Shown: positions 47,194 to 56,264, counted from the stretch's first letter. The stretch is DNA of 56,264 nucleotides from an uncultured Vicinamibacterales bacterium (GCA_964476725.1 CAYZBZ010000003.1:1849-58112), one strand, 5' to 3'. Made by a program: numbers and translations. Notes: a model not told the origin generated them from the sequence alone.

Positions 47194-47361
47194 TCAATAG
47201 GAAAAAGATGACGGGTCCATACCCTCTGCAACCGCGCGTCGCTCGAAGGCTGCGGGACTGATCCGCCCGAGCGCTCATTGTCGACGCCATTGGTTATAGA
47301 ACACTTCGATGTAGTCAGACAAGGCCATCTTGGCGTGGCCGATTTGGTCCCGCAGGTTTAT
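47194..47361 (-). mobile_element. C-terminal remnant of an IS3-family transposase (rve integrase end) with an in-frame stop
   Basis: The minus strand reads INLRDQIGHAKMALSDYIEVFYNQWRRQ-stop-ALGRISPAAFERRAVAEG. Compare the canonical IS3 OrfB end ..A....DYIE.FYN..RRHSALGY.SP..FE. The internal TGA is at 47275-47277. No upstream catalytic DDE region or inverted repeats were seen. Confidence 0.65.
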
Positions 47362-47499
47362 TTAGGTAAGCTGAACTCATCGCCTGGGCATCGTCGAGCG
47401 GCGCCGATGCGCCAGACGCCAATGCGTAACCCTGCGGATCCGTGTGGCGCCTCACCCGCGCGGAACGACGCGCCTGCCTCGGTGTTCCGGGAGAAATGT

Positions 47500-51114
<3,615 letters not shown>

Positions 51115-51116
51115 CG

Positions 51117-52109
51117 ATGGACCTCAGTACGGAGTATCTCGGGATGAAGCTGCCCCATCCGCTGGTGGCCGGAGCGTCGCCGCTGGCCGATGACCTCGAC
51201 GGTATCAAACGCCTCGAAGACGCCGGCGCCGCGGCCATCGTCCTGCGATCGCTTTTCGAAGAGCAGATCACACGGGAGCAGATGTCGGAGTACATCAATC
51301 TCGACAGCCACGGAGAATCGTTCGCTGAGGCCGCCAGCTACTTTCCCAGCCCCCACGCCTTCGCCCTGGGCCCCTTCGAGTACCTGGATCACGTACGACG
51401 GGCGAAGGAAGCGGTCCGCATTCCCGTCATGGCGTCGCTGAACGGCGCAACGCCAGGCGGCTGGATCGAATACGCCTGTCTGATGGCGCAAGCCGGCGCG
51501 GACGCGCTGGAGCTGAACCTCTATCGCATCGCGACCGACCCGGAGACGACCAGCGCGGGAATTGAGCGCCAGGTTATTGAAACGGTACGGGAGGTGAAAA
51601 AGGCCGTCACGATCCCGGTGGCCGTCAAACTGTCCCCGTTCTATACCGCGTTCGCCCACCTCGCCAGGGAGCTCGACCGGACCGGTGCCGATGGGCTGGT
51701 CCTCTTCAACCGTTTCTACCAACCCGACATCGACGCAGAGGAGCTGACCGCCACGCGCACGCTTCACCTCTCGGATTCCTCAGAATTGCGCCTTCGCCTG
51801 CACTGGATGGCGATCCTCTCCGGGCGCGTCCGGGCGTCGCTTGCGGTCACCGGCGGCGTGCACACCGCGCTCGACGTCGTCAAGGCCACGATGGCCGGTG
51901 CACATGTCACGCAGATGGTATCGGCGCTCCTGATGCACGGGCCTGTGCATCTCCGAACGGTGCTGGACGACCTCGCGGTGTGGATGCAGGAGCACGAGTG
52001 GGACTCGCTCGCCGAGATGCGGGGCAACATGAGCCTCTCCAGGGTTCCCGACCCCGACGCGTACGAACGGGCGAATTACATGCTCATGCTGCATAGTTGG
52101 CGAGCCTGA
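51117..52109 (+). CDS. Dihydroorotate dehydrogenase-like (class 1 DHOD fold) protein commonly paired with PFOR
   Basis: 330-aa ORF starting 3 nt after the nifJ stop. LGMKLPHPLVAGASPL, VMASLNG, ELNLY and VAVKLSPF strings indicate a DHOD-like TIM barrel. Confidence 0.8.
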   Translation: MDLSTEYLGMKLPHPLVAGASPLADDLDGIKRLEDAGAAAIVLRSLFEEQITREQMSEYINLDSHGESFAEAASYFPSPHAFALGPFEYLDHVRRAKEAVRIPVMASLNGATPGGWIEYACLMAQAGADALELNLYRIATDPETTSAGIERQVIETVREVKKAVTIPVAVKLSPFYTAFAHLARELDRTGADGLVLFNRFYQPDIDAEELTATRTLHLSDSSELRLRLHWMAILSGRVRASLAVTGGVHTALDVVKATMAGAHVTQMVSALLMHGPVHLRTVLDDLAVWMQEHEWDSLAEMRGNMSLSRVPDPDAYERANYMLMLHSWRA

Positions 52110-52241
52110 CGCGCCGCGGACGCCGCTGAGCGTCCAGACACGATCGCGGTCGCGAGACGCGCTTCCCGCTCCTGCGACTGTCCGATTTCCAGGTGAGTCG
52201 ACCTGGCCCCTCCGAGGTCGGCTCCCCCACGCGGCCGCCTC

Positions 52242-52761
52242 TCAGCGAGTCGTCTCCTTCTGATCGTTGATTTCCATGAGCCAGTGGCGAGGAGCGCAGC
52301 GCTCCCCGCACTGGCATTCGTCCACGTCGTGCCGCCGTCGGTCGACTCGATCACACGCATCGCCGTCCCGATCGGCGCTTCGTTGCCGACGTACATCGTC
52401 GTGTTGCTCGCGTAAGCGAGCGTCGCGTTGAAACCCGGCCACGGTGCGGCCACTACGGTCAGGACTCGATTGTTGAAGCTCGCGCCGCCGTCGTTGGTGA
52501 ACCAGAGATTGCCGCTGATGCGCGCGGCGTCGCGAGCGCGGTGTTGAAGTAGGTCAGGGCGGGGTCGAAGAACTCGGCGATCCCGGTCCATCCCACGAGC
52601 CATTTCGACTGCGTGTTCGGCGGATTCCTGACGTTGCGGAGGATGAACGAGTAATACACGCTGCCGAGGCTGACGAGATCGTCCGCCTGGCTCCAGCCCA
52701 CGCCGAACCCGTCGCCGCCGAAGACCTGGTTGTATGTGCCGCTGGCCGACGACGTGCTCAT
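52242..52761 (-). pseudogene. Frameshifted fragment of a BNR/Asp-box beta-propeller (sialidase-like) protein
   Basis: Frame 1 (52761 to about 52545) reads GTYNQVFGGDGFGVGWSQADDLVSLGSVYYSF ... WLVGWTGIAEFFDPALTYFNTALA. Frame 2 reads NLWFTNDGGASFNNRVLTV ... MRVIESTDGGTTWTNASAG, with the Asp-box SxDxGxTW. Only about 165 aa survive, and the 3' end is undefined. Confidence 0.5.
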
Positions 52762-52890
52762 CGGCCATCATAAGACCGATTCGATACGTATCACGCTGGC
52801 GGCCATGTTCCGCGGGCGGGTGTTGCCGCGTAAGGTCGAACTGGGAGTGAGTGAACCTTTGCAGGCCTCTATATACTCTGACCGCATTCA

Positions 52891-54024
52891 ATGAAGCGAT
52901 TCGTGCTGTTGCTCGCCCTCTGTGTACTAGGCAGAGAATCCACTCAGGTGATGGCCCAGGACGAATCCCCGGCGTCTGGCCGCTCCGGTCCGCTCCCGGT
53001 ACAGCGGACGGGGCAGGACGTGTACCGCGCGGCCTGCCTCACCTGTCATGGCCCGGACGGCACCGGCTCGCCGAAATCGGTGATCGGCTTCGACGTCCCC
53101 CTGCCCGACTTCAGCGACTGTGCCTTCTCGACGGCCGAACCCGACCCGGATTGGCGCGCCGTCGTGCATGAAGGTGGCGCCATTCGCGGCCTTGACCGTC
53201 ACATGCCGGCCTTTGGCGACGCGCTGTCGCCGGACGATATCGCGCTGGCGATCAGTCATCTGCGCACGTTCTGCAAAGAGCCCGCATGGCCGCGCGGCGA
53301 CCTGAACTTGCCTCGCGCGTTCTTCACCGAGAAGGCGTTTCCCGAAAACGAGTCTGTCTGGGCCACGACGTTCACGGGTCGCGGGAAGAAGTCCGTCGGA
53401 AACGACCTGATCTACGAACGGCGGCTCGGAGCCAGAAATCAGATCGAACTGGTCGCGCCCGTCAGTGTCCAGCAGGGGGCCGCGGGCGAGTGGAGCCGCG
53501 GGCTGGGGGACCTGGCTCTCGCGTTCAAGCGCACGGTGTATGCCAGCATGCGGACAGGGCGGATTGCGGCGGCCGGCATGGAAGTCATCCTGCCGACCGG
53601 CAAGGAGGAGCTCGGCCTCGGGAATGGGTACACAGTCTTCGAGCCGTTTGCGATGTGGGGCCAGATCTTGCCCCGCAGCTCGTTTCTGCAGATGCACGGC
53701 GGCGTGGAACTGCCCTCCGATTCCACTCGCGGCACCAGAGAAGCGTATCTGCGCACGGCCCTTGGGACCACCTTCGCACAGCACCGGGGCTTCGGCCGCG
53801 CGTGGTCGCCCCAGCTCGAAGTGCTGTGGGCGCGTCCGGAGCGGGGTGCTTCAGAGTGGGATGTCGTGCCGCAGGTGCAGGTGACGTTGTCGAAGCTCCA
53901 GCACGTCATGGTCGCCGCTGGTGTACGGCTTCCGCTCAGTCAGCGAGAGGAGCGACCCGCGCAGGCCCTGGTCTACCTGCTCTGGGATTGGTTCGACGGG
54001 GGTTTCTTCGAGTTCTGGAAATGA
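52891..54024 (+). CDS. Fusion protein: N-terminal monohaem cytochrome c domain + C-terminal MetA-like outer-membrane beta-barrel domain
   Basis: Signal peptide MKRFVLLLALCVLG. CLTCHGPDG haem motif with DRHMPAFG Met segment. About 250 aa of amphipathic strands follow, including GLGDLALAFKRTVY, AAAGMEVILPTGKEELGLGNGYTVFEPFAMWG, QLEVLWARP and VQVTLSKL. Aromatic C-terminus LWDWFDGGFFEFWK. Confidence 0.7.
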   Translation: MKRFVLLLALCVLGRESTQVMAQDESPASGRSGPLPVQRTGQDVYRAACLTCHGPDGTGSPKSVIGFDVPLPDFSDCAFSTAEPDPDWRAVVHEGGAIRGLDRHMPAFGDALSPDDIALAISHLRTFCKEPAWPRGDLNLPRAFFTEKAFPENESVWATTFTGRGKKSVGNDLIYERRLGARNQIELVAPVSVQQGAAGEWSRGLGDLALAFKRTVYASMRTGRIAAAGMEVILPTGKEELGLGNGYTVFEPFAMWGQILPRSSFLQMHGGVELPSDSTRGTREAYLRTALGTTFAQHRGFGRAWSPQLEVLWARPERGASEWDVVPQVQVTLSKLQHVMVAAGVRLPLSQREERPAQALVYLLWDWFDGGFFEFWK

Positions 54025-55697
54025 GCCTCATGAAGCGCGCCCTGTGCCTCGCTGCTGCGGTTTGGCTGTGCGCGGTCCTGTTCGCGACATTGCGCGCCGA
54101 CACGGCCCAGTCGCCCGGCGCCACGTTGTCGCCTCGACGCAACGCGCACGCCGACACCTCCATGTTTGCCCACTCCAGCGAATGCCTCGCGTGTCATAAC
54201 GACCTCGTCACGCCGAACGGGGAGGATGTCTCGATCGGTGCGAACTGGCGGGGCACCATGATGGCGAATGCCGCGCGCGACCCGTATGTGCAAGCCAGCG
54301 TGCGCCGAGAGACGATCGACCACCCGCTGCGCGCCGGGGACATCGAAGACGAGTGCGCCTCCTGCCACATGCCCGCGAGCCAGAAGATCGCGCGCGCGGC
54401 GGGCGGGAAGGGACAGGTCTTCGCCCATCTGTCGCGCGCCGCGGCTGGCGCACCGTCGGACCTGGACGATCTGGCGATCGACGGTGTGTCGTGCACGGTT
54501 TGTCACCAGATCGCGCGCGACCGCCTTGGCACGCCGGAGAGTTTCAACGGGAACTTCGTGGTGGCCGCGCCGCTCGCCAACGGCAAGCGGCGCGCCTTCG
54601 GCCCGTCCGAGCCTGACGCCGGGCGGCGTCGCATCATGCATTCGGTGACGGGATTCGAGCAGGAGCAAGCGACGCATATTCGTGAGTCGGAGCTGTGCGC
54701 CACCTGCCACACGCTCATCACGGACGCGATAGGTGCGGATGGCCGGGTGATCGGCTCCTTGCCCGAGCAGATGAGCTACCAGGAGTGGCGCCACAGCGCA
54801 TTCCTGCAGGAGCAGCGCAGTTGCCAGTCGTGCCACATGCCGCGGGCGCAAGGTCCTGTGCGCATCGCCTCGGTGCTCGGTGACTATCGCGACAGCCTCT
54901 CCCGCCACACGCTCGTCGGCGGCAATGCGTTCATGCTCAGACTGCTGAATCGCTACCGGGCCGAACTGGGGGTCGAGGCGACGTCGGCGGAACTGGAAGC
55001 CACGGCGCGGGCGACCGTTCGTCAGCTCGAACAGGAGACGGCGACCGTAGCCGTCGAGAGTGCCGCCCTGGGCAAGGGCACGCTGGCGGTTGATGTCGTG
55101 GTGAGGAATTTGACGGGACACAAGTTTCCGACCGGGTATCCGTCGCGTCGCACGTGGCTGCACCTTGTCGTGCGAGACACGCAGGGTCGTACGCTGTTCG
55201 AGTCCGGACGCGTGACCGAGGCGGGACTCATCGAAGGCAACACGAGTGACGCGGCCGACGACACCTTCGAGCCGCACTACGAGGAGATCACGAAGCCTGA
55301 CGAGGTGCAGATCTACGAGTCGATCATGGGAACACCGGCCGGGCTGCCAACCACCGGCCTGCTCCGGGCGACCCAGTACCTCAAGGACAACCGGCTGTTG
55401 CCGCGGGGGTTCGACAAACGGACGGCGTCGGCGCAGATCGGGGTCTTCGGCGGTGCAGCGGCCGATGAGGACTTCACGGGCGATAGCGATCGCGTGCGTT
55501 ACCGTATTCCCGCCAGCGCGACCGGACCAGTGACCGTCCAGGTCGAACTGCGGTACCAGGCGATCGGCTACCGCTGGGCTCAAAATCTTGTGTCGTACGA
55601 CGCGCCCGAGCCCAGGAAGTTCGTCGGCTACTACAACAGTCTCGCCTCGTCTTCGTCCGTCGTGGTCGCGCGGGTCTCACGGAGCGTGGGGCCCTGA
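54021..55697 (+). CDS. Exported pentahaem c-type cytochrome
   Basis: The ATG overlaps the upstream stop (ATGA at 54021-54024). Signal MSLMKRALCLAAAVWLCAVLFA. Five CxxCH motifs: CLACH, CASCH, CTVCH, CATCH, CQSCH. The C-terminal half has NLTGHKFPTGYPSRRTWL. Confidence 0.85.
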   Translation: MSLMKRALCLAAAVWLCAVLFATLRADTAQSPGATLSPRRNAHADTSMFAHSSECLACHNDLVTPNGEDVSIGANWRGTMMANAARDPYVQASVRRETIDHPLRAGDIEDECASCHMPASQKIARAAGGKGQVFAHLSRAAAGAPSDLDDLAIDGVSCTVCHQIARDRLGTPESFNGNFVVAAPLANGKRRAFGPSEPDAGRRRIMHSVTGFEQEQATHIRESELCATCHTLITDAIGADGRVIGSLPEQMSYQEWRHSAFLQEQRSCQSCHMPRAQGPVRIASVLGDYRDSLSRHTLVGGNAFMLRLLNRYRAELGVEATSAELEATARATVRQLEQETATVAVESAALGKGTLAVDVVVRNLTGHKFPTGYPSRRTWLHLVVRDTQGRTLFESGRVTEAGLIEGNTSDAADDTFEPHYEEITKPDEVQIYESIMGTPAGLPTTGLLRATQYLKDNRLLPRGFDKRTASAQIGVFGGAAADEDFTGDSDRVRYRIPASATGPVTVQVELRYQAIGYRWAQNLVSYDAPEPRKFVGYYNSLASSSSVVVARVSRSVGP

Positions 55698-55760: not shown

Positions 55761-56264
55761 ATGAACACCGAGAATACCAGCGAGTGGGGCTCACGCAGTC
55801 ACATCCACGTGCTCGCGCTGATGGCGGCAACCGCCCTCGGCATCTATCTCTGCTACCGGATGGCCCTGCCATTCGTGCCAGCGCTGACCTGGGCGCTGGC
55901 GCTGGCAGTCTTGTTCATGCCGGTCCACCGGTGGCTGGAGTCCACGGTGAAACACTCCAACCTGGCGGCGTCGGTCTCCGTCCTGGTGATCGGCCTGATC
56001 GTGGTCGTGCCTGCGACGTTCGTGGGGCAACGGCTCGTCTCGGAAGCCGTGACAGGTGCGGACACCATCAGGGCCAGGGTCGAGTCCGGGGAGTGGCAGC
56101 CCGTCCTCGCTGTCCACCCGCGCGTCGCGCCCATCGCCCAATGGATCGAGCGGCGGATTGACCTGCCGGGAACCATCAGCACGATCGCTGCCTGGCTGAC
56201 CAATGCCACCGCGTCCTTCGTCAGGGGCTCCGTGATTCAAGCGATCGGCGTGCTCCTGACGTTC
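55761..56264 (+). CDS. AI-2E family (PerM/UPF0118) transporter, 5' partial (runs off the window)
   Basis: The frame is open from ATG 55761 to the window end. MALPFVPALTWALALAVLFMPVHRWL ... SVSVLVIGLIVVVPATFVG is the typical AI-2E N-terminal TM pattern. Confidence 0.7.
   Translation, partial: MNTENTSEWGSRSHIHVLALMAATALGIYLCYRMALPFVPALTWALALAVLFMPVHRWLESTVKHSNLAASVSVLVIGLIVVVPATFVGQRLVSEAVTGADTIRARVESGEWQPVLAVHPRVAPIAQWIERRIDLPGTISTIAAWLTNATASFVRGSVIQAIGVLLTF

Follow-up and report, generated by a model that had tools for sequence, protein, structure and literature searches.

A stretch of DNA of 56,264 nucleotides (nt) from an uncultured Vicinamibacterales bacterium (GCA_964476725.1 CAYZBZ010000003.1:1849-58112), hereafter the window, contains two overlapping genes that bring together a cytochrome c, an outer-membrane (OM) barrel and a pentahaem cytochrome. 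The first, ORF1 (open reading frame 1; 52891-54024), encodes P1, an exported protein of 377 amino acids (aa) in which a cytochrome c is followed by a 12-stranded OM β-barrel; the second, ORF2 (54021-55697), encodes P2, an exported pentahaem cytochrome c of 558 aa that ends in an immunoglobulin (Ig)-like β-sandwich. Positions are counted from the first letter of the window, and both genes, with all their features, lie on the + strand. The best explanation of the pair, put forward tentatively and with slightly less than even confidence, is that the two proteins form a periplasmic redox module, tethered to the OM and coupled to a gated channel for small molecules. It is close to a suggestion of the original prediction, an earlier reading of the same DNA, that redox chemistry is coupled to uptake through the barrel.

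The stop codon of ORF1 and the start codon of ORF2 overlap in the sequence ATGA (54021-54024), as had been pointed out in the original prediction together with the five CxxCH motifs of the 558-aa, signal-bearing P2. The gap between the stop codon of P1 and the start codon of P2, computed over 71 loci with heuristic start calls, has a median of -4 nt and is at most 30 nt in 66 of them. The main linkage scan covered the 80 best GTDB species loci of P1, and in 77 of these P2 lies directly 3' of P1 on the same strand; two of the remaining three lie at the end of a contig, and in the third (L047) P1 is genuinely solo. The hosts are mainly Acidobacteriota, joined by Gemmatimonadota, Rhodothermales/Balneolaceae, Verrucomicrobiota, Myxococcota and one betaproteobacterial metagenome-assembled genome (MAG). 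A second scan, queried with a single distant P1 homologue, returned 28 loci of a clade in which the fusion stands alone (L084-L105, L107, L119, L127, L128, L136, L137) and 52 others, 50 of which have P2. The members of the solo clade, at 32-39% identity, have neither P2 nor a conserved neighbour and come from Binatia, Thermodesulfobacteriota, Methylomirabilis, Ignavibacteria, Cytophagia and Deferribacteres. The co-conservation on which the original prediction depended is therefore found in the Acidobacteriota and beyond, yet it is limited to one clade. Since the solo clade is deep and lacks P2, the fusion of cytochrome and barrel is the older unit and self-sufficient, and P2 a clade-specific, tightly coupled addition.

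Both proteins are abundant. Clustering at 90% identity leaves more than 3,700 full-length homologues of P1 and more than 7,600 of P2, numbers that place both far beyond chance, and the module occurs in more than 570 species-level genomes, being particularly common among soil Vicinamibacterales MAGs. Most homologues come from the Vicinamibacterales and are labelled only as 'cytochrome c' or 'hypothetical protein'. Two kinds of apparent variant were rejected. Matches of 560-750 aa, which would be natural P1-P2 fusions, are Arg-rich frameshift chimeras from error-prone assemblies, and among the matches of about 260-300 aa, which would be stand-alone barrels, several begin at an internal MPAFG or within the cytochrome domain, as a result of truncated gene calling. 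Relatives of P1 are as a rule fusions, not stand-alone barrels.

No neighbour family besides P2 is kept across the 80 loci of the main scan, and no third cytochrome is conserved near the pair there; other cytochromes with at least four haems occur inside 8 kb of it in only 6 of the 80. The runner-up family, found in only 14/80 loci (L003, L010, L011, L014, L019, L024 and others), is a small hydrophobic membrane protein of about 150-200 aa, encoded some 0.5-1.5 kb upstream of the P1 homologue and usually on the same strand; the window has no homologue of it next to the pair. At locus L002 a two-component system and a second, solo P1 paralogue (46% identity) come before the pair, and on the 84-kb sister contig of L002 the genes after it encode a small cytochrome c, one cytochrome of the NapC/NirT type, a multihaem cytochrome resembling MtrA, and an MtrB_PioB porin. 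In nine Ignavibacteria/Bacteroidota solo loci the sole recurrent neighbour is a divergently oriented gene whose product, some 320-375 aa long and with the motif LDGGGTKT at its N-terminus, has, judged by eye, the look of an ATPase of the BadF/N-acetylglucosamine-kinase type.

The structure of P1 was modelled with AlphaFold2 (AF2) from 35 sequences and its strands were assigned with DSSP; models were compared with the PDB by means of Foldseek, families were searched in Pfam and NCBIfam, and profiles were compared with hhalign. The P1 model has a mean predicted local distance difference test (pLDDT) of 88.9 and a predicted template-modelling score (pTM) of 0.82. Its N-terminus (MKRFVLLLALCVLG...VMA|QDE) is hydrophobic and Sec-signal-like, without a canonical lipobox; a signal peptide is predicted at aa 1-22 (52891-52956), with cleavage placed by eye after VMA (MKRFVLLLALCVLGRESTQVMA|QDE), and residues 19-36 are modelled with pLDDT below 50. 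There follows a class-I monohaem cytochrome c domain (aa 39-128; 53005-53274), helical in the model (aa 41-125, pLDDT about 85-92), with His53 and Met105 as the predicted axial ligands. The haem motif C49-L-T-C-H53 (53035-53049; TGC CTC ACC TGT CAT) stands in the context ...RTGQDVYRAA-CLTCH-GPDGTGS, the consensus of the family being GxxxYxAACxxCHGxDG, and both Met105, in RHMPAFG, and P106 are at least 90% conserved. Pfam recognises in P1 the family Cytochrome_CBB3 (PF13442, aa 39-123, E 5.9e-9), as well as Cytochrom_C, and nothing else. The Sec-like signal, the single CxxCH (CLTCH) and the MPAF-type methionine had all been noted in the original prediction, the last corresponding to Met105. Two further cysteines, Cys77 and Cys128, are conserved as a pair in both the paired and the solo clade of the P1 family, C128 being invariant in both; they probably form a disulfide that holds the cytochrome domain to the linker where the latter begins.

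This linker (EPAWPRGDLNLPRAFFTEKAFPENE, aa 129-153; 53275-53349), placed just before strand 1, is the best conserved stretch of the P1 family, in which G136, N139, K148, P151 and, at the first position of the barrel, E154 are invariant. Most likely it plugs the barrel lumen from the periplasmic side, given that the segment preceding the first strand enters and plugs the lumen from the periplasm in two solved barrels, the COG4313 channel Pput2725 and FapF (PMC4493636, PMC5557850). The barrel itself (aa 154-366; 53350-53988) consists of 12 strands, assigned by DSSP to residues 154-162, 168-179, 183-195, 201-219 (kinked), 224-234, 249-260, 264-275, 284-293, 304-316, 322-332, 339-348 and 358-366. 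It is mostly modelled with pLDDT above 90, its extracellular loops are short, and polar and apolar faces alternate in many of its strands. E176, E186, K213, E310 and D366, invariant across both clades, lie on polar strand faces that are predicted to face the lumen. In the loop between strands β5 and β6, a PTG motif (P235-T236-G237; 53593-53601) marks the base, directly after strand 224-234; L234 precedes it, and conservation reaches at least 90% for P235 and is complete for G237. The protein ends in a conserved aromatic tail (DWFDGGFFEFWK; 53989-54021), a candidate β-signal or periplasmic contact; in this C-terminal region W365 and W376 are invariant, and D366, D369 and G370 are at least 90% conserved.

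All Foldseek matches of the P1 model with E below 1e-4 are OM barrels. The best is FapF (E 1.5e-10, target-normalised template-modelling score (TMt) 0.67), followed by the COG4313 protein Pput2725 (E 9e-6) and, lower down, by KdgM, NanC, PcoB and autotransporter/intimin barrels. A PDB sequence search with P1 retrieved cytochrome c domains only and left the barrel unmatched; structure prediction was needed to reveal the kinship with FapF and COG4313. The barrel of about 250 C-terminal aa announced by the original prediction is thus borne out by the model, and each string cited for it, namely GLGDLALAFK, EVILPTGKEELGLGNGYTVFEPF and FFEFWK at the C-terminus, occurs in P1. Its assignment to a MetA-like family holds for relatives at the level of sequence: 15 of the 35 relatives match PF13557 (Phenol_MetA_deg; best E 4.4e-7), but P1 of the window has no match to it at E<=1.

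P2 begins with a hydrophobic, signal-like N-terminus; its homologues likewise have signal-like N-termini, without a conserved lipobox cysteine. The protein contains exactly five CxxCH motifs, at C55-H59 (54183-54197), C112-H116 (54354-54368), C158-H162 (54492-54506), C226-H230 (54696-54710) and C268-H272 (54822-54836), all invariant in the 48 aligned homologues, and mature P2 has no cysteine beyond them. The AF2 model, built from these 48 database proteins, has a pLDDT of 78.6 and combines a helical haem region with a well-predicted C-terminal β-sandwich of the Ig-like type (aa ~341-556; 55041-55688), defined by DSSP strands with pLDDT 85-97. The single significant Foldseek match is the pentahaem c552 of Thermochromatium tepidum (5ZE8; E 2.7e-14, TMt 0.65), which aligns over the whole chain, and sequence profiles also link P2 to the Ig-like domain of 5ZE8 (E 1.8e-5). 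Pfam gives only sub-threshold multihaem similarities, for example to MtrC domain II/IV and c7, and the NCBIfam model ExtKL (NF040886) matches P2 partially (aa 201-397; 37.7 bits, E 8.9e-10, against a cut-off of 250).

ExtKL of Geobacter (GSU2937-2936), renamed MccSep in a paper of 2026, was shown there by experiment to be a periplasmic selenoenzyme with five haems and an Ig-like domain that acts as polysulfide reductase, and in which a selenocysteine from the Ig-domain loop GHSIPDG-U-PTPNR reaches the His/Cys-ligated haem 2 (PMC13510729). By hhalign, the P2 family was related to an MccSep homologue from a Nitrospirota MAG (L083) with a probability of 96.7% (E 3.9e-10), haems 2-5 and the active-site loop being in register. 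The L083 gene (1-1000, - strand), whose C-terminus is cut by the end of the locus, has an in-frame TGA in the loop GHRIPDG-U-PSTNR, and its product is therefore a selenoprotein of the family described in PMC13510729. In this alignment the second motif of P2 corresponds to the catalytic haem 2 of MccSep (PMC13510729), and the P2 loop G366-H-K-F-P-T-G-Y373-P-S-R-R377 (55116-55151) is homologous to the active-site loop. Tyr373 takes the position of the selenocysteine, and the Cys ligand of haem 2 in MccSep (C239) is aligned to a gap (PEQ--MSY in P2 against PSQCATIY). G366, H367, K368, P370, Y373, P374, R376 and R377 are invariant in the 48 P2 sequences, as are the histidines H101, H219, H258, H296, H367 and H419. 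P2 is therefore a member of the MccSep/c552 superfamily, yet one without the features that define MccSep, although its counterpart of the active-site region is strongly conserved. Haem 2, together with the loop residues Tyr373, Arg376 and Arg377, is the likeliest candidate for a reaction or ligand site, as judged from the alignment. A P2 homologue with two in-frame TGA codons in garbled sequence was found in a MAG labelled 'beta proteobacterium' (L045:9149-10756, +); a selenocysteine was rejected in this case, since the codons are frameshift debris and not a site of the type served by a selenocysteine insertion sequence (SECIS), and the gene has the look of indel errors or of a pseudogene.

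Beyond the domain folds, family relationships, gene coupling and co-conservation observed here, we infer an orientation, a plug, a docking, a direction of electron flow and a role for a substrate. P1 would insert into the OM as a 12-stranded barrel of the FapF/COG4313 type, which by homology would be a narrow, plugged and possibly gated channel, and the conserved segment before strand 1 would most likely fold into the lumen from the periplasm as the plug. The His/Met cytochrome c, by homology periplasm-facing, would sit just upstream of the plug, probably pinned by the Cys77-Cys128 disulfide. P2, as a soluble periplasmic five-haem cytochrome with the fold of MccSep/ExtKL and T. tepidum c552, would be made in a fixed proportion to P1, set by translational coupling, and would dock on it. 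Electrons could then be exchanged between the one haem that P1 carries and the chain of haems in P2, and onward with soluble carriers, while a small substrate would enter or leave the periplasm via the gated barrel, with chemistry at the P1 haem and/or at the haem-2/Tyr373 site of P2. In favour of such a module are the invariance of the linker and of the charged, predicted lumen-facing residues across both clades, as well as the parallel with the Geobacter ext cluster, where the porin ExtI stands beside the periplasmic MccSep. Several points weigh against it. P2 is not obligatory for the function of P1, as the 28 solo-clade homologues and the solo copy L047 within the paired clade lack it; the histidines of P2 suffice for five bis-His haems, so that P2 may be a pure electron carrier like c552; a His/Met cytochrome fixed at the OM still needs an additional soluble link to the inner membrane; and the substrates of COG4313 channels are hydrophobic or amphipathic, whereas those at MccSep-type sites are anions.

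A conduit across the membrane, announced by the original prediction as a candidate porin-cytochrome module, is not what these data favour. A transmembrane wire of the Mtr kind is unlikely because the lumen of a COG4313-type barrel, plugged and only ~10-12 Å wide even without its plug (PMC4493636, PMC5557850), cannot hold a haem domain and hence cannot sheath the ~90-aa domain of P1. With one haem, placed on the periplasmic side, P1 alone could carry no electrons across the ~25 Å of the membrane; no surface or lipoprotein cytochrome is apparent as a partner of the barrel protein, and MccSep and T. tepidum c552, the relatives of P2, are soluble periplasmic proteins (PMC13510729). The headline of the original prediction could also take the form of a metal oxidase or extracellular electron transfer conduit similar to Cyc2, which would link extracellular redox substrates to the periplasm, with electrons or Fe(II)/Mn(II) crossing at the barrel and the fused haem as the first redox site. 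Such a device has the same general logic of signal peptide, one haem and fused barrel (PMC8406198); the solo clade shows that one haem and a barrel can suffice, a His/Met haem suits the acceptance of electrons from Fe(II), and cations would be suited by the conserved acidic lumen (E176, E186, E310, D366) and the structural likeness to the copper channel PcoB. We nevertheless regard it as improbable. Cyc2 is defined by PXFAR[Q/K][T/Y] 5 aa upstream of CXXCH, by PXL 4 aa downstream and by a 16-stranded OprO/OprP-like porin (PMC8406198), and P1 has neither motif and 12 strands instead of 16. Moreover, its plugged lumen could not contain the cytochrome fold, cofactor-free tunnelling across the membrane is not feasible, no surface cytochrome is apparent, P2 lacks a lipobox, and Fe(III) formed in the periplasm would precipitate. 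An unlikely reading, although a better one than the Cyc2-like conduit, is that nothing passes at all and that the barrel is a passive anchor, tethering the relay of the P1 haem and P2 at the inner face of the OM, where it could for example feed or drain other OM or periplasmic redox systems. The short extracellular loops, the probable plug and the option of a bis-His carrier like c552 would fit, and so would the contig with the NapC/NirT, MtrA-like and MtrB_PioB cluster and the 6 of 80 loci with other multihaem cytochromes. Even so, a lipid anchor would be far cheaper, the 80 loci show no systematic linkage to other conduits, and the retention at ~32-39% identity of charged lumen residues, plug and PTG/GLG loop (predicted to be extracellular) exceeds what an anchor needs.

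In P1 the plug-like linker and the cytochrome domain are directly joined, and a conserved pair of cysteines lies where they meet, which would suit a redox-gated channel. P2 or the periplasmic cytochrome pool would set the redox state of the haem in P1, and this state would control the release of the plug, so that the barrel would open or close according to respiratory status. The periplasmic N-terminal domain of FapF, a coiled-coil, regulates plug and opening in a similar way (PMC5557850), and the fusion is conserved with or without P2. We rate this idea as somewhat less probable still than a Cyc2-like conduit: it is pure analogy, no precedent for haem-gated OM barrels was found, and it leaves unexplained the tight coupling to a five-haem, enzyme-like partner in the main clade. 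The order of an N-terminal passenger, a linker and a C-terminal 12-stranded barrel is also that of type Va autotransporters, and BrkA, Hbp, invasin and intimin barrels are among the Foldseek matches; export of the cytochrome domain to the cell surface is, however, very improbable. The best matches and the PTG motif point to FapF and COG4313, which have their N-termini in the periplasm; in Foldseek the barrels of autotransporters come well behind these two, and neither P1 of the window nor its 35 relatives match the Pfam Autotransporter family (PF03797). A haem-loaded, probably disulfide-bonded, folded domain would furthermore be a poor passenger, and the coupled P2 has a Sec signal only and has periplasmic relatives (PMC13510729). 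More daring than the redox module coupled to a gated channel, which we continue to prefer, is the proposal of a new class of minimal 'haem-capped' OM channel, in which a periplasmic cytochrome c would be wired to the FapF/COG4313 plug; it is unlikely, to much the same degree as the anchor. The haem might oxidise or reduce a small redox-active substrate on its exit from the pore (candidates are Fe(II)/Mn(II), a sulfur species, and a shuttle of the quinone or humic type), or its redox state might gate the pore. In the main clade, new haem chemistry might be added, at the site where relatives carry selenocysteine, by a pentahaem enzyme that is similar to MccSep and contains Tyr.

Upstream of the pair, at 47278-52109 (+), lie a pyruvate:ferredoxin oxidoreductase (POR_N, POR, EKR, Fer4, TPP_enzyme_C) and, immediately after it, a dihydroorotate-dehydrogenase-like gene (PF01180, E 2.2e-12), both apparently without relation to the pair. 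Between the latter and ORF1, two reading frames on the - strand (52459-52761 and 52076-52891) contain the Asp-box-like motifs STDGGTTW and TNDGGASF; they have no Pfam match and may be a frameshifted or degenerate BNR-type gene. Downstream, starting 64 nt after ORF2 and running off the end of the window, there is a gene of the AI-2E transporter family (55761-56264, +), recognised by PF01594 below threshold (E 2.9e-4; score 20.6 bits, cut-off 34.3). Promoter/terminator, Rfam and repeat scans of the P1-P2 region gave nothing informative.

Few groups of soil bacteria are as abundant as the Acidobacteriota, the Vicinamibacterales included, and the module is of interest because the respiratory and extracellular redox capacities of the Acidobacteriota are poorly known. 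Should the passage of a substrate be coupled to periplasmic haem chemistry, P1 would represent a second, independent invention of a cytochrome-barrel fusion after Cyc2, and the module would provide a gene by which a so far unrecognised redox process in soil could be traced. The module also extends the newly characterised MccSep family by a Tyr-bearing branch with presumably different chemistry. As current conduit screens demand cytochromes with at least 10 haems together with large porins (e.g., PMC13264449), the P1-P2 module would escape them.

From a comparative perspective, the pair resembles MtrCAB, PioAB and the Geobacter Pcc systems in that a barrel gene stands beside a multihaem cytochrome gene, and P2 has weak, sub-threshold Pfam similarities to MtrC domain II/IV and c7. 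In those systems, however, the barrel is a separate protein of 20-26 strands that encloses a deca- or octahaem wire and contacts surface cytochromes, whereas the P1 barrel is too narrow and the haems of the pair cannot span the membrane; neither P1 of the window nor its 35 relatives match MtrB_PioB. P1 resembles in organisation the Cyc2/Cyt572 proteins of iron oxidisers, which likewise consist of a signal peptide, a single N-terminal CxxCH and a C-terminal OM barrel and are widespread in environmental bacteria, and it has the generic features of Cyc2 (signal peptide, single CXXCH, at least 365 aa). It differs in having a full ~90-aa class-I His/Met fold instead of a short haem peptide, in its COG4313-type barrel without the Cyc2 motifs, and in that most members of its family are coupled to a pentahaem partner. 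The original prediction, which could not match the fused architecture to any described system, had overlooked Cyc2 (PMC8406198); P1 nevertheless lacks the features that define Cyc2.

As to P2, it shares with MccSep the five CxxCH motifs, an Ig-like domain at the C-terminus and a gene placed beside that of an OM barrel. It differs from it in the invariant Tyr373 in place of the selenocysteine or cysteine of the MccSep loop GH-x-IPDG-[U/C]-P, in the absence of the Cys ligand of haem 2, in a length greater by about 130 aa and in the NCBIfam score, far below the cut-off. The ext cluster has a stand-alone porin, ExtI, with about 21 strands, and the partner barrel of P2 is instead 12-stranded and fused to a haem domain. 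The hosts also differ, being mainly soil Acidobacteriota for P1-P2 and sulfur reducers for MccSep; the lifestyle of the former is presumably aerobic. For ExtI, selenite uptake has been reported (Jahan 2019, as cited in PMC13510729). The low-potential c552 of T. tepidum (5ZE8) has in common with P2 a five-haem helical domain and an Ig-like domain with an H-x-x-P-T-G loop, and differs in an alanine at the position of Tyr373 and in a shorter chain of 435 residues (385 in the solved model); we know of no coupling of this cytochrome to a barrel-cytochrome fusion.

The barrel of P1, lastly, is a 12-stranded OM barrel like those of the COG4313/PF13557 channels (Pput2725, 4RL8; SphA, TcpY) and of FapF (5O65), and a conserved segment likewise precedes its strand 1, where the solved structures have the lumen plug. 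The PTG motif at the base of the β5-β6 loop is common to FapF and Pput2725 (PMC5557850) and is found in P1 as well. The described members of COG4313 and FapF, in contrast to P1, carry no cytochrome: at the N-terminus there is a periplasmic coiled-coil in FapF and a stretch of just some 14 residues in COG4313 channels. Their substrates, unfolded amyloid subunits in one case and hydrophobic or amphipathic molecules in the other, are not obviously redox substrates, and P1 of the window is too divergent for the Pfam model. In the literature searched there is no description of a cytochrome-COG4313 fusion or of a fused porin-cytochrome from Acidobacteriota. Taken singly, the domains are all of known families (class-I cytochrome c, COG4313/FapF barrel, MccSep/c552), and cytochrome-barrel fusions are known from Cyc2; as a combination, P1-P2 differs from the known systems, and it is both widespread and unannotated.

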